From a virus: 44,568 bases of DNA. The notes below the pieces were generated by a model. That model did not search any database and was not told the origin of the DNA. It saw nothing but the letters and a program-made list of their open reading frames with translations. Positions 4,969-14,703 of this stretch are shown here, piece after piece; position 1 is the stretch's first letter; the number at the start of each line of letters is the position of its first letter. The DNA lies in the UHGV virus genome UHGV-0171754; one strand, 5' to 3'. The translations under genes were made by a program, and so were the position numbers.

Positions 4969-5065
4969 ATCGAAATCCTTTGAGTTGTGAGCATTCGCCC
5001 AGTACCGTTAATGTTACCTTAGATTTACGCGCTCGCAAAATCGCCCGCTTTCGCGGGCAATTTGC

Positions 5066-5767
5066 TTACTCGTCGCCCATTTTAGCGATGATTTCACCAG
5101 CCTGTTTCGTCAGATCGGTGATGCCGAAGCTGTGGCCCATAGAGATTTTCGACTTCACATCTTCGACAACATGCGTCGGTTTGCTCGGCGCACCACCGGC
5201 TGGCGTGCCAGCCAGGACGGATGCAAAATCGGCGTTATTACGGAACTCTTTTTCAAGCTCTTCCATAGTCAGCGCGGACGGTTTACCATCCTGCAAGACA
5301 CGCACCTTCAAGCTGCCGTCTTCGCCGTCTTCCAGCGTCAGGCGGTCCATTACGTGGCGTTGCATGATTCCAGCATTCTTACCGAACAGCTTCGAGGCCA
5401 AATCTTTGGCAGCGCTGCCGATGGTTAGATCGTGGATCTGCTTGCGGTAGGCTTCGATTTTTCCCGATGTGTCCGCTTCATGTTTTGCGAACTTATCTTT
5501 CCAGGACTTATCGATCGCTTCGAGGTCGCCATTTTTGCGCGCGGCGGCTTCCTCTTTCTCTTTCGCAAGGCGCTCAGCTTCGGCGCGACGTTCGGCTTCT
5601 GCTCTCTTCTCGCTAACCAGCTTCGCGTTGTTGTCTTTCAGACCCTTGATCTCCGCCTGTACTTCTTCGGCGGTCATGAACGTGGATTTATACCCATCGC
5701 CATCGGCAACAAATAAAGCCTTCATGCCTTCTGGCAACGCGTCATATTCTGCTTTAGTAAGTTTCAT
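5066..5767 (-). CDS. Scaffolding protein
   Basis: 233 aa from ATG (MKLTKAEYDAL) with AGGGGGA RBS; charged coiled-coil-like (KRAEAERRAEAERLAKEKEEAAARK); sits between morphogenesis and capsid genes. Confidence 0.6.
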   Translation of the reverse strand: MKLTKAEYDALPEGMKALFVADGDGYKSTFMTAEEVQAEIKGLKDNNAKLVSEKRAEAERRAEAERLAKEKEEAAARKNGDLEAIDKSWKDKFAKHEADTSGKIEAYRKQIHDLTIGSAAKDLASKLFGKNAGIMQRHVMDRLTLEDGEDGSLKVRVLQDGKPSALTMEELEKEFRNNADFASVLAGTPAGGAPSKPTHVVEDVKSKISMGHSFGITDLTKQAGEIIAKMGDE

Positions 5768-5857
5768 GCTATCCCCCTGGGATTGTGGCAAAGCGGGCCA
5801 CCCGCTTGACTTCACGCCTTAATATTATCAGCGATAAAAATAATCGCAAAATTCGCT

Positions 5858-5902
5858 TGCACTGCGGGAATTGGTTGCGCTATATTGGTTGCACACCAAC
5901 AA
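5858..5902 (+). promoter_or_regulatory. Sigma70-like promoter (TTGCAC-18-TATATT) with two TTGGTTGC octamers and a TTGGT-N5-ACCAA palindrome over the start site
   Basis: -35 at 5858-5863, -10 at 5884-5889, octamers at 5874-5881 and 5888-5895, palindrome at 5888-5902; near-identical to the leader at 15946-15960. Confidence 0.5.
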
Positions 5903-5915
5903 TGAGGACATAAAA

Positions 5916-6680
5916 ATGAGACTGACGAAAGACATTAAAAATCAGATCCTAGCTAACATCCTGCGCGACCACGAAATCGCTACCGAAGCCAAAACAATCA
6001 TGATGGACTCTCGCGACCTGGCGTACGCAATCACGCTGGACTGTATGCCGGACGGCATTCGCACATTCGCCGCGCTACGCGAGCATATCAAGGCAATCCG
6101 CGATGACCAGTCGCAGATGTACGGCGTCAGCGTATACACCAACAAGGCGACGTATAGTTATAACACCGACCGCCCGAAGGGTATCGGCAGCGTTTACGAC
6201 GCCACCTTTGAAATCAACGCAGGCGGAAATGTTCGCACCTTGTCCTTGAGCGGTGACGGTCGCCAATACCGCGTACATCGCGGATACTGGGAAGAGAAAT
6301 ATATGAATAAGCTCTCGCCTGATCTCGGCGATATCGTTCCGGGGTTCGAGACAGTTATGCTCGCGTCAGTGTGCGAAGTGGACGAGGAAGGGAAAGCGCT
6401 GCCGATATATCTCCCACGCGGTCGCGCAGACTACCCGGCGGACCATGACTTCTGTAAGCGCCTGGACCGCAACGACAAGGCACGTCGCGAGTTGCGTGCG
6501 AAGTATGACGCGTTCAAACTCACCGTTACCGGTGTACTGGACCTGCACAATACTGACAAGAAGCTGATTAAAGCATGGCCTGAAGTTGAGCAATTCATCC
6601 CATACCCGGACAAGCCAAAATCCACGGCGGTGGCGCTGGATGTGAAAACACTCAACGAGATTTGCGGCATTCCTCGCTAA
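5916..6680 (+). CDS. Hypothetical protein (254 aa), opposite-strand insertion in the morphogenesis module
   Basis: ATG (MRLTKDIKNQ) with GAGGA RBS 7 nt upstream; own promoter and a bidirectional terminator; no recognisable motif. Confidence 0.7.
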   Translation: MRLTKDIKNQILANILRDHEIATEAKTIMMDSRDLAYAITLDCMPDGIRTFAALREHIKAIRDDQSQMYGVSVYTNKATYSYNTDRPKGIGSVYDATFEINAGGNVRTLSLSGDGRQYRVHRGYWEEKYMNKLSPDLGDIVPGFETVMLASVCEVDEEGKALPIYLPRGRADYPADHDFCKRLDRNDKARRELRAKYDAFKLTVTGVLDLHNTDKKLIKAWPEVEQFIPYPDKPKSTAVALDVKTLNEICGIPR

Positions 6681-6685
6681 CGAAA

Positions 6686-6706
6686 AAGGGGCCATTATGG
6701 CCCCTT
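6686..6706. terminator. Bidirectional intrinsic terminator between convergent genes
   Basis: 9 bp stem aaggggcca/tggcccctt with 3 nt loop, A-run upstream and T-rich run downstream. Confidence 0.6.
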
Positions 6707-6925
6707 AATTATTTGCTGCAACTCCAGCACCTGCGCCCTTAGCTTCGCCCCGCATTCCATATTTTTCACGTCAATCATCAAATCTTCGTCGGGGTCCGCA
6801 GACGGGTTATCGAACTTGCACGGCGGTCGCAGTGCCGATTCCGTTAGCGGCATCAACGGCACGCTGCTTGATCCGCACGCGCTCAGCGTCAAAACTACAA
6901 TCAGGGCGGTTAGGGCGCGTAACAT
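6695..6925 (-). CDS. o-spanin (Rz1-like outer membrane lipoprotein)
   Basis: 76 aa from MLRALTALIVVLTLSAC; lipobox LSAC, proline-rich mature part; reading frame overlaps the 3' part of the i-spanin gene. Confidence 0.55.
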   Translation of the reverse strand: MLRALTALIVVLTLSACGSSSVPLMPLTESALRPPCKFDNPSADPDEDLMIDVKNMECGAKLRAQVLELQQIIKGP

Positions 6926-7136
6926 ATTTAACAACCTCTTTTGTGATAGTCCGGTATTCCACGTCGCGGGCTTGTTCTGCCTGCACGGAGCGCTCAATTA
7001 CTTTAGTTTGCTGCCGTTGGGCTTGGGATTGCGCTTCTTGCGCCGCCTTCGCCACTACGCCAGCGCGGTAGGAGTCACCTAGCCAGAATCCTACCGCCAG
7101 ACCCATAACCAGTCCAATAGCCGCATATTTAATCAC
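6807..7136 (-). CDS. i-spanin (Rz-like)
   Basis: 109 aa; N-terminal transmembrane segment (IKYAAIGLVMGLAVGFWLG), then charged coiled-coil region and a C-terminal Cys; GTG start overlapping upstream stop. Confidence 0.6.
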   Translation of the reverse strand: MIKYAAIGLVMGLAVGFWLGDSYRAGVVAKAAQEAQSQAQRQQTKVIERSVQAEQARDVEYRTITKEVVKYVTRPNRPDCSFDAERVRIKQRAVDAANGIGTATAVQVR

Positions 7137-8232
7137 GCCATAACCCCCGGTTTTTAAGCTGTGCGATAGTCATTAGTTCGCCGGAATCGGTGAACATCTT
7201 CGGGACTTTCACGCCGCGCATAATCTGGTCGGCGCGTTGCACCCCGTATAATTCCTCCAGGATATGGCGCGGCTGGCGCTGCACCCATGAGAAGAAATCA
7301 GTCTGCGCGTCGACCTGCTCACTCAGCAATCTGCCAGCGTCAGCCTTCAGCGCCGGACGCTTACCACTGGGCCAATCTTCCATACCTTTGACTTTCCACG
7401 TCTCCGTCGAACGGCAGCAATAATGTAGCTTGCCTGGACCAGCGCCATATTGTGATCCAGCCACCACTTTCCCGCCGCGCTTTCCTTTGGTGTCGGGAGT
7501 AACATCAACCGGATAAAACAGGCGATCGCGTAGCTGGCACATGGGAGAAGTATGCGTGTCCAATGTAGATAACCATTGGCGACCTTCGAGAATATCGTCA
7601 TTTGCTTTTACCATTAGTTCGCGGGCTGTCGCCGCATAGTGGTTGACTGCGGACTTAACAACGCTTGAGATAGCTTGCGCACTACGACCGCCGAGCGCGC
7701 GCCTCACGTCCGCAATAATTTCCATAGTCGGCTTGCCCTGGATGAATCCGGCGCGCACCTGATTGCCGATCTGCGTCCTGGTCCACTCAGAAAGTGAGTC
7801 AGGCCATTGCATCATCGTATTACCCTGGAACGGGTTTTTAATTGCAGTCGCTGCGATCTGCGCACCGGTCACTACGCCAACCACCTCGACTGCAGGTACG
7901 GCGACCACCGGCTGGATCGCTGCCGTTAATGTGTCGGCGAGATAATCAGCCTCCGTGTCGGCAAACTCCTGAAGGCTTTCAGCCAACGCCTTAAACTCGG
8001 CGCGCAGTTCCGTTTTTACGGTCTTGTCGATTTGCGTTAGCAGGGTTGAAAGTGCCTTGTTGTTCATTGACGATTTGCCATCAAGCAACTCAGTCAGCTT
8101 TCCCAGTAACGTAGGCCGGAACTTCTCCCACATAGCCAGCACCCTTCGCGCCTGGTCATTGCTCAGGCGCTGGGTGAAGATGTGTCGGCGGATCATTCGA
8201 TCCGCCATATATTGATTAATTGTCTTCGCCAT
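7129..8232 (-). CDS. Head morphogenesis protein (Mu F / SPP1 gp7-like minor head protein)
   Basis: About 367 aa from ATG (MAKTINQYMADR); immediately downstream of portal, overlapping its stop. Confidence 0.7.
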   Translation of the reverse strand: MAKTINQYMADRMIRRHIFTQRLSNDQARRVLAMWEKFRPTLLGKLTELLDGKSSMNNKALSTLLTQIDKTVKTELRAEFKALAESLQEFADTEADYLADTLTAAIQPVVAVPAVEVVGVVTGAQIAATAIKNPFQGNTMMQWPDSLSEWTRTQIGNQVRAGFIQGKPTMEIIADVRRALGGRSAQAISSVVKSAVNHYAATARELMVKANDDILEGRQWLSTLDTHTSPMCQLRDRLFYPVDVTPDTKGKRGGKVVAGSQYGAGPGKLHYCCRSTETWKVKGMEDWPSGKRPALKADAGRLLSEQVDAQTDFFSWVQRQPRHILEELYGVQRADQIMRGVKVPKMFTDSGELMTIAQLKNRGLWRD

Positions 8233-9736
8233 TGTCCGCAACCTTGTCCGGGTCTTCTTCGGTAGATTCTACCGCATCCGGGGACATTTGAGGCAATGGA
8301 TTCTGATTTCGCAGTTCGTCTTCCACCTGCTCGACGGTTTGCGAGTCATCAATTACGCCCTGGGCCATCATCCACTTGATAAAGTCCGCCAGACGGACCG
8401 TACCGGTCTGCACCCCCGCCATCATTGCGGTCATAAGCTGTGCGTCCACCGTGATCTCGGTGTAGAACTTATTCAGCGTTACGCGTTGATCTGCGGTGTC
8501 GCCAGTGAACAGCTTGACGATTTGCAGCGCACGGTTGAAAGCCTTCTCAACGTTACCGGCGATCAGTGACAGGATACTGTTATCCGTCTGTGCATCATAG
8601 GCCGCCTCGGTTGCCGTCTTAGGTGCGGTCCCCTTCTCGACCAGGGCCGCGCCCAGTTTAGCCATTTGCAATTCGCGTCGCTCACACAGCGCAACTGACA
8701 GGTTTCGCTCCTCCGCCTGAAGCAGTTTAGCGTCCATGTTCTGACCAAGGATGACGCCTTTAGTGGCCCCTAGCGCGATGCCGCCCTTCAGGTTTTTATC
8801 CGCCCATGATTGGGTCAGACCGGTCGCAATGAGTGTAGGTTGGCCCACAATGTGCGCAATCTCGGCGACGTCTGCTTCGGCGTTGTAGTGCTTAATGTTG
8901 ATTGACGCGATATCCGCCAGCGGTGCGGCATCTGGTGTTGCATTGTTATCCACCGCGCCACACCAACAGAAAGGCAGTTGCGTAAGCGCGTTACCGGCGG
9001 CATCCACCAGTGGCACAAGGTCGGTGCGGGTGAATCCCCGCGGCAAGTCCATTTGCACCTCGGACGTGTCCGCATTGTAAAACCAGCGGCGGGCGTGTGC
9101 CTTACCCGCAATCATGCGAAGCTCAGTCCAGATCGTTACTTCGTGGTTTGCGAAGTCGTCCGGGTCTACGGTGCTGATTTCGTCCGTCTCCTTCAGCACG
9201 ATTAGCGTGTCGACCCCGTGGGTCTGTCGCCAGTTAATGATCTGTTCCGCCGTATACAGGCGGATAAGCGGGCGGTGTGCCGCCATTTCAGCGGCTGTCT
9301 GCGGCACTACGTTACCCAGTTCGTCAAAATGCGCCTGGCGGTCGTAGTCCACCATAAAGCCAGCGCGGCCCGATTGCAGCACTTCCGACATAGCTCCGCG
9401 CAGGAGTTGCGCCAGCGGCATCCCGCTGCCGTCTACGTCATCAATCAGGTCAGCCATTGCCCCGGAAAGGTCAATACTCACCGGTTTGGCGAAGGCGACG
9501 CCTAACAGGGCATTCAGTGTGCGGGCGGTGGCATTCAGGAAGACAGCACGTTGCTTATATGCCTTATAGCGCGCACGCGATTTCGGGTCGGTGGTGTCGC
9601 CGCTGGCTGGGTGTGGCAGGTACAATGGCCCGCACGCCTTTACGGCGCGCTCCCCTGCTACGCAGTCACGGATCATTTTCCACTCAGGCGCGATGCGTGC
9701 ATAGAGCGGGTGCTGGTTGTCAACGTTAACGGTCAT
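8216..9736 (-). CDS. Portal protein
   Basis: 506 aa; AAGGAAA RBS; position between terminase large subunit and head morphogenesis gene. Confidence 0.8.
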   Translation of the reverse strand: MTVNVDNQHPLYARIAPEWKMIRDCVAGERAVKACGPLYLPHPASGDTTDPKSRARYKAYKQRAVFLNATARTLNALLGVAFAKPVSIDLSGAMADLIDDVDGSGMPLAQLLRGAMSEVLQSGRAGFMVDYDRQAHFDELGNVVPQTAAEMAAHRPLIRLYTAEQIINWRQTHGVDTLIVLKETDEISTVDPDDFANHEVTIWTELRMIAGKAHARRWFYNADTSEVQMDLPRGFTRTDLVPLVDAAGNALTQLPFCWCGAVDNNATPDAAPLADIASINIKHYNAEADVAEIAHIVGQPTLIATGLTQSWADKNLKGGIALGATKGVILGQNMDAKLLQAEERNLSVALCERRELQMAKLGAALVEKGTAPKTATEAAYDAQTDNSILSLIAGNVEKAFNRALQIVKLFTGDTADQRVTLNKFYTEITVDAQLMTAMMAGVQTGTVRLADFIKWMMAQGVIDDSQTVEQVEDELRNQNPLPQMSPDAVESTEEDPDKVADNGEDN

Positions 9737-9747
9737 GGTCGGTTTCC

Positions 9748-11133
9748 TTAGTAGAAGTCTACAGTTGGAACAACGGCGATTGGGCGAATCACTGGGAACA
9801 AGTGCGCAATAGGATAGCCCGCTGCGTCATTCATGTGGTCCACCCCGGCCGTTTTATCCGGCTCGCCTTTCTTCAGGTCGTAAACCTGCTGTTCCAGACA
9901 TTTCGCTAGTGTAGGGCATTTATCCAGGTTGACAAAATACTGGCGTACACCCTTCGAGTTGCACATCATCGTATTCATCGCGATCAATCGGTCTTTCACA
10001 GGTGGGTTAACGCTGTCGTACTCCACCTCGAAGCCCGCATCTTCCAGTTGCGCGATATCGGACGACGACGCGTTGACCGTTTTGCGGGATTTTCCGCTGC
10101 TATCCGGATACACGACGACCCTACCGGCGGCACAATGTTCCGGGTAGCGCTCCTCGATCGCCTCAATCATAGCCGGGGTGTCAAACAGGTCCACAAATTC
10201 ATCCACCGCGTGAATCTCGTCGCGGAACTCCTTGTTCTCGGTGGTACGCTGCCGTCTTACATACACGACCGCCGCCATTTTCGTGACGTTAAAGTCTATA
10301 CCGATAATCAGCGTATCGTCCGGTTGTACTTCTTCGGTGCTGGCGTTCTCATCGCGGTTGAACATCTTGTACACCGCGCCCGACGTAAGGTTAACAAACA
10401 GACCGTTCAGGTACGCATCAATCAGGTTCGCCGGGTACTGACTGCGCAGCGTGTCGATAAAGTCTGCCGGTAAATGGTGGTTGTCGGTGGTCTTCGCCCG
10501 GATCAGGCGCTTTTGGCTATCCTTCTCCACCTCGAAAATTTGATACATCGCCCGGTAGCCTTCAGGCGTGGATACTATGACGAACTGGCGGACGAAGCCC
10601 GCACGCAGACGACCTAGCAATTTGTGATATGCCGCCAGCGCGACGTCTTGTTTCGTGGTGTCGAACTCGTCGGCAACAATCCACGCGGCGTTGACCCCGA
10701 TCAGGCGGGTATAGTTCTCCATTGATTCACAGATCACGCGGGTCCATTTGCCTTTCACCAGAACGCTATAGATCTTGTCCTGCTTGTTGAACTTCCACCG
10801 GAAGCCAGCCTCGTCGAAAGCCTTCTCCAGTTCCGGATACATGATTTTAACCAGGAGGGGAATAGTCGGCTCCGTAACAATGCCATCATGACCGGGGTTC
10901 AGGGTTAAAAGCTGGATGACCTTACGCGCAGCGACCCACGACTTTCCGCCACCGAAGCCAGAACACAGGCCGAGGATTTTAGTCTTAGTGTCCCGCAGTA
11001 GTTCGACCTGGTGCGGAAGGCAATCAGGCTGGTAAAGCCGCACCGCCTGCGCAACGCGTGTTGGGCGTGGTGGTCGGTTGCGCTTTGCGATCGTGCGCTC
11101 CAGTGCGCGGTGTTCCGCCGCATAGTTACGCAT
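9748..11133 (-). CDS. Terminase large subunit
   Basis: 461 aa; P-loop GLCSGFGGGKSW and acidic ADEFD motif in the N-terminal ATPase part; start overlaps the small-subunit stop (TAATG). Confidence 0.9.
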   Translation of the reverse strand: MRNYAAEHRALERTIAKRNRPPRPTRVAQAVRLYQPDCLPHQVELLRDTKTKILGLCSGFGGGKSWVAARKVIQLLTLNPGHDGIVTEPTIPLLVKIMYPELEKAFDEAGFRWKFNKQDKIYSVLVKGKWTRVICESMENYTRLIGVNAAWIVADEFDTTKQDVALAAYHKLLGRLRAGFVRQFVIVSTPEGYRAMYQIFEVEKDSQKRLIRAKTTDNHHLPADFIDTLRSQYPANLIDAYLNGLFVNLTSGAVYKMFNRDENASTEEVQPDDTLIIGIDFNVTKMAAVVYVRRQRTTENKEFRDEIHAVDEFVDLFDTPAMIEAIEERYPEHCAAGRVVVYPDSSGKSRKTVNASSSDIAQLEDAGFEVEYDSVNPPVKDRLIAMNTMMCNSKGVRQYFVNLDKCPTLAKCLEQQVYDLKKGEPDKTAGVDHMNDAAGYPIAHLFPVIRPIAVVPTVDFY

Positions 11134-11814: not shown

Positions 11815-12957
11815 TTACTTCAACATTTCCGGGCTAATGGTTAAGCGCGCTACTTCGCCGTAGTTGGCGCTATAGGTGATGACGTTTGCGCTGCGACCGG
11901 ACATCCAACCGCCACGACTGGCGTAGGCGTCTTTCGCTGCGAGCGTCCGGTGCTGTTCAACAATCATGTTGCGAGACTCGACAATCTTCTGGTGGTGCAA
12001 ATGACCTACGTGCGCGTAGCTGTATTCGCTTGACCCGAACGCCTGTCTGAATTTAGCGATCATAACCTGCTCGATAGCATCGAATCGCGCTTTGTGCCCG
12101 TGGTGGAAAAATAGCGTGGTCTTACCGTGCTGCACCATTTTGTAGACGTCCGGGGACGTATCCACATCGACGCGCGGCTCGTTCTCGTACAGCGTGTTGA
12201 ACATCTCAGCAAGCCAAATCATGCCCGACTCGTCATGATTACCCTGGACGATTAGCAGTTTGACTTTGTGGTGTTTTTGCAGCGCCAGGTCTACCACGTT
12301 GCGCACCATGCGAATCATGTAGCGGACCAACTTCTGGTATCTGGTGTCAGCGTCAAGTACGTGACCGCTTGCCGGTGTGACGGCATCAAGGCTATCAAAG
12401 TGCGCCATATCGCCGAGGATATTGATCACGGCAGTGCCTGCGTCTGGTGCGCGTGCGAAGGCTTCGACAAACCAGCGGTAGAACAGGTCTTCGGCGATCG
12501 CCATATCCCAGTCTTCGCCAGTCTCCTCGCCCCATGCCAACATGCCCAGGTGGAAGTCTGACACGGTGTACAGGTTGAGCAAGTCAAGCGCCTGGATCGG
12601 TACTGGAGGGGATTTTACTGGCGCTGCCGGTGTGATTTCGCTGTTCATACCCTCGACAACAGCGCGCATGGCTTCGAGTTGGCGCTCCTTGTCCTGCTCA
12701 GTGATGACCCACGACATGACCTCTTCGCCATTGCCGCGCACCAAGGCAGATACGCGCTTAACACCGAAGCCATCAGCAACGCGCTTGCGGATTACGGTAT
12801 CATTGCCGTGTCCAATGCCTTTTTTCGACAGGCGGGCTTTCCGCATGTAGACGTTTCGGAGGGCAATACCGTATTTCTTCGCAATCTCTTTAACCGTAGT
12901 CCCTGCCTGAATTTCTGCGATCAATTGCTCATCGGTAATTTTAGTTTGCGGGTGCAT
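11815..12957 (-). CDS. Calcineurin-like metallophosphoesterase with N-terminal helix-turn-helix domain
   Basis: 380 aa; HTH-like TVKEIAKKYGIALRNVYMRKARL; phosphoesterase motifs SDFHLG, GDMAHFD, GNHDE, HHGHK, GHLHH. Confidence 0.7.
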   Translation of the reverse strand: MHPQTKITDEQLIAEIQAGTTVKEIAKKYGIALRNVYMRKARLSKKGIGHGNDTVIRKRVADGFGVKRVSALVRGNGEEVMSWVITEQDKERQLEAMRAVVEGMNSEITPAAPVKSPPVPIQALDLLNLYTVSDFHLGMLAWGEETGEDWDMAIAEDLFYRWFVEAFARAPDAGTAVINILGDMAHFDSLDAVTPASGHVLDADTRYQKLVRYMIRMVRNVVDLALQKHHKVKLLIVQGNHDESGMIWLAEMFNTLYENEPRVDVDTSPDVYKMVQHGKTTLFFHHGHKARFDAIEQVMIAKFRQAFGSSEYSYAHVGHLHHQKIVESRNMIVEQHRTLAAKDAYASRGGWMSGRSANVITYSANYGEVARLTISPEMLK

Positions 12958-13020
12958 ATTTAATTAATTCCTGATTAGTGTACTGGGGACAATATATCAT
13001 GGGACTTATTGAGGCGGGCA

Positions 13021-13046
13021 ATAAAAAGCCCGGATAATACCGGGCT
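13021..13046 (-). terminator. Intrinsic terminator ending the lysis-cassette transcript
   Basis: Stem agcccgg/ccgggct, 6 nt loop, T5 on minus strand. Confidence 0.65.
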
Positions 13047-13053
13047 TGATTGT

Positions 13054-13215
13054 TTACTCTTCTGGCTCTGCGGACGGTGGTGGGCTTGGCAGCTTCGCAT
13101 CGAAGACCCCAGCGTGGCTGATAGTGTCCGCGATGATAGCGCGAGCGCCCGGATCTTCGGTTTTAGCCAGCGCGGCGAGCGCGTCAGCGTTATGATCAAG
13201 AATGCTTTTTAACAT
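13054..13215 (-). CDS. Small acidic hypothetical protein (53 aa)
   Basis: MLKSILDHNADALAALAKTEDPGARAIIADTISHAGVFDAKLPSPPPSAEPEE; GAGGT RBS 8 nt before ATG; stop followed at once by the terminator; below track threshold. Confidence 0.4.
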   Translation of the reverse strand: MLKSILDHNADALAALAKTEDPGARAIIADTISHAGVFDAKLPSPPPSAEPEE

Positions 13216-13231: not shown

Positions 13232-13723
13232 TTATGCGGCGTTACGCCCGATTTTCTCGGCAACGTCCCACTGCTTACCATCAAACAACGCCTGTCTGCC
13301 GATTGCACGGCGCACCAGACCCTTAAGCACTTCCCCGCCTTGCTTGCGGAACAGCGGCAGCGTAGCACGTACCTTCGCCCAGTCGCCCAACCGCACCGCG
13401 TCATCGAAATCATTCGCGACGCCATCCGGTACGATCGGACCCGGACCGGCGTTGATTACCAGGTCCACCAGCGCGTCAAATTGCGCCTGGTTAATGCTCG
13501 GATGTGCGTATTTGTTCACCCAGTCCTCGGCATACGCCACATCGCGCTTGAGCAATGCCAGCGCTTCCTCGCGGGTAATGCTTCGTGGCGGATTAGTGCC
13601 AGTATGACCATAACCCCAGGTGTACAGGCCGCGGGCCTGCTCTTTCTTGGTCGCGAAATACGGCACCGGGCTGAAAGCCTCCCATGCTGCCGTAAATCGT
13701 AGACCGTTATCACTGAATCGCAT
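13232..13723 (-). CDS. Endolysin (lysozyme-like glycoside hydrolase)
   Basis: 163 aa; EAFSPVPY...WGYGHTG segment resembles phage lysozymes (family assignment GH24-like is from memory); adjacent to holin-like genes. Confidence 0.75.
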   Translation of the reverse strand: MRFSDNGLRFTAAWEAFSPVPYFATKKEQARGLYTWGYGHTGTNPPRSITREEALALLKRDVAYAEDWVNKYAHPSINQAQFDALVDLVINAGPGPIVPDGVANDFDDAVRLGDWAKVRATLPLFRKQGGEVLKGLVRRAIGRQALFDGKQWDVAEKIGRNAA

Positions 13724-13955
13724 GTTTTACCCCATTTAAAACAGCATTACGCAGGGTGCGCAATGCAAACAGCCAGATTAACGCGGTCCAGGTGGTATCC
13801 GATACGTCTCCTGTTTGCAACAGTCCAATAAGACAGATCATTGCCGTTAACAGATACAGCACCCGGCCTAAGATGCCATCCTGGACGGACGGCGCATACA
13901 CGTTAAACAGGGACGAAGCCCCGATGATAACAAACAACAGGACGGAGATAATCAT
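13710..13955 (-). CDS. Holin/antiholin-like small membrane protein
   Basis: 81 aa, hydrophobic segments; overlaps endolysin start and upstream gene stop. Confidence 0.5.
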   Translation of the reverse strand: MIISVLLFVIIGASSLFNVYAPSVQDGILGRVLYLLTAMICLIGLLQTGDVSDTTWTALIWLFALRTLRNAVLNGVKHAIQ

Positions 13956-14242
13956 TTTGCGCCCCCCGGAAGGTGTAGCGTCGCAATTGTCTCCCGGATC
14001 CGGTCAGCTATTGGCATCCAGAAGATGGCAGTTACGAAGCCCAAACCGGCGACAGTGCGCTCCCCCGACAAACCAGCCCACTCAGCGATAGCCGGTGCGC
14101 CAAATATGGCACACAGGAAGCCAACTACAACATACAAAACGAAGTTTAGCGGCCCCTTCGTAGCCTCACCATGAATGCGTGCGCCTACGAAGCCACCCGC
14201 CAGACATGCCAGGGCGAATAGCCACTCGTTTAGCTTATCCAT
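13952..14242 (-). CDS. Holin-like membrane protein
   Basis: 96 aa with at least two hydrophobic segments; first gene after a terminator, directly upstream of endolysin. Confidence 0.5.
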   Translation of the reverse strand: MDKLNEWLFALACLAGGFVGARIHGEATKGPLNFVLYVVVGFLCAIFGAPAIAEWAGLSGERTVAGLGFVTAIFWMPIADRIRETIATLHLPGGAK

Positions 14243-14278
14243 AAAAAAGTCCCAGTAAGTTTTAGCTCACTGGGACTA
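14243..14278 (-). terminator. Intrinsic terminator immediately upstream of the lysis cassette
   Basis: Stem agtcccagt/actgggact, 12 nt loop, T6 on minus strand abutting the holin ATG. Confidence 0.55.
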
Positions 14279-14294
14279 TATCACGCTTGCATAA

Positions 14295-14582
14295 TTAATC
14301 GAAAACGGACCACTTGCCGACGCCTTTCCACTCCCACCCGGATGACCGTACGGCTTCGAATGTTCGCCCGCCTATCATATCCCGATACCACAGCCACCAC
14401 ATGCGCAACCTGGTAGGGTGCTCCGTGATTCCACGGCGCTTGTATATCACGAACGTCATGCGGGTAATGCTGGCGGCTTCCACCGCGGGCCATACTACGA
14501 ACATCAGGACGCCCAACAGCACCGCGGTAAGCAGGCACAGCCCGCAGATCAAACCAAACCAATAAATCACGTCGTGTAGCAT
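14295..14582 (-). CDS. Small membrane protein, hypothetical
   Basis: 95 aa from ATG (MLHDVIYWFGLICGLCLL) with GGAAGGGG RBS; two hydrophobic segments. Confidence 0.5.
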   Translation of the reverse strand: MLHDVIYWFGLICGLCLLTAVLLGVLMFVVWPAVEAASITRMTFVIYKRRGITEHPTRLRMWWLWYRDMIGGRTFEAVRSSGWEWKGVGKWSVFD

Positions 14583-14703
14583 CGAATTGCCCCTTCCGGT
14601 TTGCCAATATGGCGCGCCCAAGCACGCGCCACGAAGTAATTGCGAAATACCCGACCGCCTATCTCAAAGCGGTTATGCTGAAGCATATCGCGGATCGTCG
14701 CAC

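Follow-up and report, generated by a model that had tools for sequence, protein, structure and literature searches.

The two open reading frames at positions 6695–7136 (minus strand) raise the question of whether they encode a two-component spanin, and whether their distance from the holin and endolysin genes marks a rearranged lysis module. The window, that is, the whole stretch of DNA that was analyzed, comprises 44,568 nucleotides (44.6 kb) and corresponds to an almost complete genome of Dhillonvirus (HK578-like siphoviruses, coliphages). Over positions 5000–9800 (4.8 kb compared), it was 95.6% identical to Escherichia phage SSL-2009a, and the same interval matched 159 phage records, nearly all of which were Dhillonvirus. 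Both frames, 6807–7136 and 6695–6925, were present exactly where a preliminary description of this DNA had placed them; the strand, which had been left unstated, was minus in both cases. The pair is very probably an ordinary two-component spanin of an HK578/SSL-2009a-like E. coli siphovirus, belonging to the shorter subfamily of the overlapped Jersey family. Gene anatomy, targeting signals, family membership, conservation and synteny were established directly for 6695–7136, as set out below.

Anatomy and family membership of the two genes

The i-spanin (Rz-like) gene, located at 6807–7136 (minus strand) and encoding 109 amino acids, was identified from the list of open reading frames, a PHROG match, hydropathy and existing annotation. 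Translation starts at a GTG that overlaps the stop codon of the MuF-like gene (GTGATTAA; ...CGT GAT TAA/GTG ATT AAA) and is directly preceded by GGGGG; with the MuF stop overlapping the i-spanin start, the two genes could be translationally coupled. Using a 15-residue window, the hydropathy peak was found at amino acids 5–19 (AAIGLVMGLAVGFWL, mean KD 2.15), within a transmembrane domain (TMD) of approximately amino acids 4–20. This was the sole strongly hydrophobic segment of the protein and had Lys3 on its N-terminal side. Ala, Gln, Arg and Val are abundant in the remainder, which contains one cysteine only, C80. An AlphaFold2 model computed from the single sequence, which was of low confidence (pLDDT 58.8) and was used for secondary structure alone, contained a helix at residues 3–72, a linker at 73–83 and a helix at 84–97. 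The periplasmic domain is predicted on this basis to consist of a helix, a linker bearing Cys80 and a short second helix. As looked for in an i-spanin, the protein is small and has a single N-terminal TMD (type II, N-in/C-out) followed by a periplasmic domain that is mainly α-helical in the low-confidence model. When heptad a and d positions were counted over amino acids 21–72, the best register gave 8 of 15 and the shuffle mean was 8.2; the test is crude, and the coiled-coil character ascribed to the protein at the outset is unproven. The protein matched phrog_2536 ("Rz-like spanin") at 5.1e-36. In seven i-spanin homologs, with identity down to 24%, C80, V68, K70 and Y71 were invariant, the last three lying within the conserved motif TITKEVVKYV.

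The o-spanin (Rz1-like) lipoprotein precursor is encoded at 6695–6925 (minus strand, 76 amino acids) in the +1 frame, and was identified from PHROG matches, a Shine-Dalgarno (SD) sequence and a lipobox. Its ATG start is preceded at 9 nt by the SD AAGAGG. The N-terminus, MLRALTALIVVLTLSAC followed by GSS, contains the canonical lipobox LSAC with the lipid-modified residue at Cys17. The mature protein begins with CGSS: position +2 is Gly instead of the Asp that would signal inner-membrane retention, and +3 is Ser. Mature o-spanin is 60 amino acids long and contains Cys36 and Cys58 along with seven prolines (11.7%). It had been described at the outset as a proline-rich lipoprotein; the lipoprotein assignment stands, while enrichment in proline is moderate only (7 of the 60 mature residues). 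C17, C36 and C58 were invariant in five o-spanin homologs, with identity down to 32%, and a motif DEDL..DV was conserved. In the o-spanins of loci L021–L023, the lipobox reads LCGC. At least one periplasmic cysteine is found in 507 of 528 catalogued two-component spanin systems (PMC6139136). The present pair has three, Rz C80 and Rz1 C36 and C58, all invariant in the aligned homologs.

That the two genes form an overlapped spanin pair of the Rz/Rz1 type, as initially proposed, was borne out by the PHROG profiles, by near-identical annotated genes and by the catalogue of Kongari et al. (2018). In that catalogue, phages EP23, HK578, JL1, SSL-2009a and SO-1 are placed in the overlapped "Jersey" i- and o-spanin families, within which a shorter "second subfamily (EP23 to SO-1)" is described as having two helices, a structured linker and conserved o-spanin cysteines (PMC6139136). 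Both subunits encoded here were 93%–100% identical to their SSL-2009a and EP23 counterparts and 40%–49% identical to those of Jersey. In RefSeq, the homologs in SSL-2009a and EP23 are each annotated "Rz-like spanin" twice, and in the record of BASEL phage Oekolampad the homologous genes are annotated as i-spanin and o-spanin, the BASEL spanins having been annotated via SpaninDataBase (PMC8594841). A 2025 paper on Dhillonvirus lists as the lysis system an endolysin (0033), holins (0031, 0032) and an Rz-like spanin (0040), seven locus tags off (PMC12677095). The spanin pair is thus already known, being present in RefSeq, the Oekolampad record, the 2018 catalogue and the 2025 paper. Many deposited Dhillonvirus records nevertheless give one or both genes as "hypothetical protein", give a single spanin or miss the overlapped lipoprotein.

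Searches of Pfam at E ≤ 1 returned no family for either spanin, including the families of lambda Rz (Phage_lysis) and Rz1, and NCBIfam returned no matching model for either, apart from a sub-threshold signal-peptide match. The spanin assignment therefore rests on PHROGs, architecture and the curated catalogue. By analogy, the pair would be Rz/Rz1-like in its working, while at the level of sequence it lies outside the lambda families.

Selection on the overlapping frames

The dual-coding overlap, defined from the gene coordinates and from codon-position variability, spans 6807–6925 (minus strand, 119 nt) and encodes the C-terminal 39 codons and stop of Rz together with the signal peptide of Rz1 and 22 mature residues after the lipid-modified cysteine. 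The lipoprotein frame had been said to overlap the 3′ half of the i-spanin gene in another frame. The overlap and the shift of frame (+1) were as described, but the shared stretch takes up 36% of the Rz open reading frame, at its 3′ end, and not half.

For analysis of variability, the 442-nt locus was aligned in 17 distinct Dhillonvirus sequences, and the alignment contained no indels. Counted in the Rz frame, variable sites in the part coding for Rz only fell at codon positions 1/2/3 in the numbers 23/11/45 (chi-square on these counts, p ∼1e-5). Counted in the Rz1 frame, those in the 109 nt coding for Rz1 only were distributed 12/5/22 (chi-square on these counts, p ∼0.004). Within the overlap, the second codon position of Rz, equivalent to the first of Rz1, had the fewest variable sites (5 of 39). 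Variability of the overlap as a whole was 0.31, below the 0.36–0.38 of the single-coding parts. This codon-position periodicity, as read from the alignment, indicates purifying selection in each frame. Open reading frames on the plus strand, antisense to the pair at 6816–7082 and 6832–7071, were rejected as spurious, since variable sites peak at minus-strand third codon positions in both single-coding parts.

These counts bear on the alternative that the lipoprotein frame at 6695–6925 is an untranslated chance open reading frame and that the membrane-anchored protein alone is real. The frame is often left out by gene callers, it appears in many GenBank records as a "hypothetical protein" or is passed over in favor of a single spanin, and it has no Pfam or NCBIfam family. 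Against a chance origin, a strong SD lies ahead of the frame, and its canonical lipobox is suitably spaced from the start codon; open reading frame, lipobox and three cysteines are all kept at identities down to 32%; and the 12/5/22 periodicity lies in its own frame, in nucleotides that Rz does not share. Furthermore, the product matched two PHROG families of "Rz-like spanin", phrog_5672 at 2.5e-26 and phrog_1267 at 2.4e-11. In tblastn searches 588 phage records aligned with 80% or more of the length of the frame, and a lipoprotein open reading frame with a lipobox in the overlapped +1 layout was found in all 16 of the Dhillonvirus loci scanned. A chance frame is, on this evidence, extremely unlikely, and we treat 6695–6925 as the o-spanin gene.

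Two allelic types of i-spanin occur in the genus, one of 109 amino acids with a 119-nt overlap, as in this genome, and one of 102 amino acids with a 98-nt overlap. The 102-amino acid allele is carried by a sub-clade of SO-1, Gluttony and Oekolampad-like phages (loci L004, L009 and L017–L019). Spanin proteins of the two types were 75%–84% identical (16%–25% different). The flanking MuF and scaffold proteins were 96%–98% identical in four of the five loci of the 102-amino acid type, and 88%–90% identical in the generally more divergent L019. No sharp recombination boundary was found around the spanins in the divergent sub-clade, where identity in a 60-nt profile dips gradually to 0.70–0.85.

Position of the spanin genes relative to the holin/endolysin cassette

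Holin-like genes and an endolysin had been placed at 13232–14242, and two holins and one endolysin were indeed recovered there on the minus strand by PHROG and Pfam searches. They are a holin at 13952–14242 (minus strand; phrog_2359, 6.3e-31), a second holin or antiholin at 13710–13955 (minus strand; phrog_2508, 8.8e-27) and a soluble GH24-type endolysin at 13232–13723 (minus strand; phrog_7, 8.1e-36; Pfam PF00959 Phage_lysozyme, 3.9e-20), bracketed by terminator-like hairpins at 14277–14248 and 13047–13026 in the terminator scan. From the endolysin stop (13232) to the Rz start (7136) there are 6,095 bases, in agreement with the ∼6 kb given before.

Among the open reading frames neighboring the endolysin, neither a second two-component spanin nor a u-spanin was found by PHROG or hydropathy. 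The frame at 12975–13199 was rejected because it lacks both a PHROG match and a hydrophobic segment and includes a terminator-like hairpin; that at 14281–14625 was rejected for having no PHROG match, and that at 14295–14621 (minus strand) was likewise rejected as a spanin candidate near the endolysin. The last of these lies just upstream of the pre-holin hairpin and overlaps 14281–14625 in another frame; its predicted product is small and has a single stretch of strong hydrophobicity (MLHDVIYWFGLICGLCLLTAVLLGVLMFVVW...). A metallophosphoesterase or DNA-repair-exonuclease-like (exo) gene at 11815–12957 (minus strand; phrog_704, 8.9e-162) is situated between the endolysin gene and TerS. Some Dhillonvirus genomes carry this gene and others, such as L006 and L014, lack it; phage Jersey has a 74%-identical homolog elsewhere, on the opposite strand.

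The spanin genes follow TerS, TerL, portal and MuF-like genes on the same strand. Directly upstream of the i-spanin is the MuF-like head morphogenesis gene at 7129–8241 (minus strand, 370 amino acids; phrog_241, 3.4e-117). Downstream, the terminator scan detected a bidirectional terminator-like hairpin at 6686–6706 (both strands) with a 9-bp stem that includes six GC pairs. It contains the o-spanin stop, with the final codons of that gene (GGG GCC A) serving as one stem arm, and TTT follows on the minus strand. The GenBank record of HK578 has "terminator (x2)" at the homologous site. This hairpin probably ends a transcription unit that runs from TerS to the spanins, and from gene spacing and the consensus terminator scans we infer that the spanins would be co-transcribed with the head genes.

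Beyond the hairpin lies a plus-strand gene, 5916–6680, with a match to Pfam Nmad5 (nucleotide modification associated domain 5; 4.8e-61). A promoter-like sequence, TTGCAC-18-TATATT, read by eye, is found before it at 5856–5885, and minus-strand scaffold and capsid genes resume past this gene. The slot from the o-spanin stop to the scaffold gene (5768–6694) varies among loci: it contains Nmad5 alone or Nmad5 with a RusA-like or other gene, or it lacks Nmad5 altogether, as in the HK578-like loci L011, L012 and L016. The preliminary description had put the pair between a head morphogenesis gene and an inserted early gene. The first neighbor is confirmed by phrog_241, and the second designation is plausible only, on account of the opposite strand, the variable slot and the promoter-like site.

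It had further been suggested that a split lysis module is uncommon and speaks for rearrangement. This did not hold for any recent event, as gene order was constant in the genus and in Jersey. All 11 of the Dhillonvirus loci whose fetched DNA reaches the holin/endolysin cassette shared the order holin, holin, endolysin, TerS, TerL, portal, MuF, Rz, Rz1, scaffold, MCP, with exo following the endolysin in some of them and variable opposite-strand genes following Rz1. The distance from endolysin to spanins was 5.6–6.9 kb in these loci, and in every Dhillonvirus locus examined the spanins came after MuF and before scaffold. Salmonella phage Jersey (Guernseyvirinae) has the same gene order with proteins just 24%–48% identical: holin, holin and lysin are at 41.2–42.2 kb and, past the genome end, are followed by TerS, TerL, portal, MuF, i-spanin (7501–7887), o-spanin (7733–7996) and scaffold. 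Because Jersey shares the order at this level of identity, the layout predates the split of Dhillonvirus and Guernseyvirinae. On the gene orders compared, we regard the split layout as conserved and ancestral to both groups and not as a recent rearrangement.

A recent event would have required either that the spanins moved out of a holin-endolysin-spanin cassette in this phage or that packaging and head genes were inserted into one. In its favor, a lambdoid-like contig (L023, 7721–9457) has two holins, a chitinase-like endolysin and an overlapped Rz/Rz1 pair in one contiguous cassette ahead of the terminase, its spanins being 38%–40% identical to those studied here. The flanks of the unit are also variable, both at the exo gene and in the slot after Rz1. 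The shared order in all 11 loci and in Jersey and the constant MuF-to-scaffold position argue against it, as does the fact that, of the 159 phage records matched, 148 align across 80% or more of 5000–9800. A recent rearrangement is accordingly judged very unlikely. Given contiguous cassettes of the L023 type, separation of the genes, or independent assembly of the two arrangements, would belong only to deep history. Another relative has its endolysin ∼1 kb upstream of an embedded spanin pair. L024 (7507–9444), like L023, carries distant homologs of this spanin family in a classical lysis cassette; its Rz/Rz1 pair is embedded, and an inserted HNH gene separates Rz from the endolysin region. In phage T7, genes 18.5/18.7 lie apart from genes 17.5 and 3.5. 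Lysis genes that are not clustered are also documented in T4-like phages (PMC6139136).

The same surroundings could be taken to mean that the pair is a membrane protein and lipoprotein with a role other than lysis, for example in superinfection exclusion (Llp/Cor-like) or head assembly. The genes sit inside the head-gene block and may be translationally linked to MuF, and no direct functional test was found in the literature searched: no published complementation, deletion or lysis-morphology test of Jersey-family or Dhillonvirus spanins was found, and the literature gave genome-annotation statements only. Yet homologs occur directly after the endolysin in canonical lysis cassettes, and the pairing of i- and o-proteins, the overlapped +1 architecture and the conserved periplasmic cysteines together form the signature of a two-component spanin. 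Moreover, the genome contains no other spanin candidate, and a Gram-negative outer membrane normally requires one (PMC6139136). A role outside lysis thus has next to no likelihood, and the pair is treated as the spanin of this phage in what follows.

Proposed working and comparison with known systems

Using lambda Rz/Rz1 and T4 PseT.3/PseT.2 as models, we infer expression timing, complex formation, disulfides and membrane fusion as follows. Both spanins would be expressed late, as the last cistrons of a TerS-TerL-portal-MuF unit ending at the hairpin on the o-spanin stop. The i-spanin would insert in the inner membrane by its N-terminal TMD and expose a mostly helical periplasmic domain, and the o-spanin would be lipidated at Cys17 and, with Gly at +2 and Ser at +3, be sorted to the outer membrane. 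The two proteins may bind through their periplasmic C-terminal regions, with disulfides from Rz C80 and Rz1 C36 and C58 stabilizing the complex, which would be restrained by the intact peptidoglycan meshwork. After the separately encoded holins and GH24 endolysin had degraded the murein, the freed complexes would fuse the inner and outer membranes and complete lysis. As the holin sets the timing and spanins need only late expression, a distance of 6 kb would be tolerated and stably inherited.

The closest known systems are those of EP23, HK578, JL1, SSL-2009a and SO-1, which have the same genes; the SSL-2009a i-spanin is 94%–95% identical to that of this genome and its o-spanin is 100% identical. 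This subfamily likewise has an overlapped +1 arrangement, a two-helix i-spanin with a cysteine in the linker, two periplasmic cysteines in the o-spanin and a position after MuF, and its differences from this genome are allelic only. The pair of Salmonella phage Jersey (Jersey_09/Jersey_10) is homologous (40%–49%), overlapped and located in the MuF-scaffold slot as here, and its two holin genes and lysin gene lie ∼8.7 kb off, on the other side of the genome end. It differs in having an i-spanin of 128 amino acids, an overlap of 155 bp and two extra small genes between MuF and the i-spanin, and no opposite-strand gene follows its o-spanin.

The pair would be expected to resemble lambda Rz/Rz1 in pairing a type II protein of the inner membrane with an outer-membrane lipoprotein read in the +1 frame, in having periplasmic cysteines and in acting after holin and endolysin (PMC6139136). 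In lambda, however, Rz1 is fully embedded in Rz, whereas here the genes only overlap, and Rz/Rz1 are contiguous with S and R, whereas here 6.1 kb separate the spanins from the holin/endolysin genes. Mature lambda Rz1 is also more proline-rich and without a predicted helix, compared with the o-spanin of 60 amino acids and 11.7% proline found here. As in this genome, the T4 spanins PseT.3/PseT.2 are not clustered with holin and endolysin and consist of a small i-spanin (117 amino acids) and an o-spanin with two periplasmic cysteines (PMC6139136). They belong to an unrelated sequence family, and the T4 i-spanin is without a periplasmic cysteine, unlike the present one with C80.

The placement of the spanins as the last, coupled cistrons of the packaging/head unit might be an adaptive regulatory design and not a neutral accident, tying spanin dose to the expression of virion-assembly genes while the holins and endolysin are controlled apart. 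We consider such a design rather unlikely. Were it true, the faster divergence of the spanins (75%–84% identity, against 96%–98% for the flanks) could reflect adaptation to differences in the host envelope.

With the pair recognized, the lysis system of this genome is complete; the significance of the finding beyond correct annotation is small. Since spanins need no linkage to holin and endolysin genes, annotators should search the whole genome for them, and the engineering of lysis-deficient or lysis-enhanced Dhillonvirus must target two loci.
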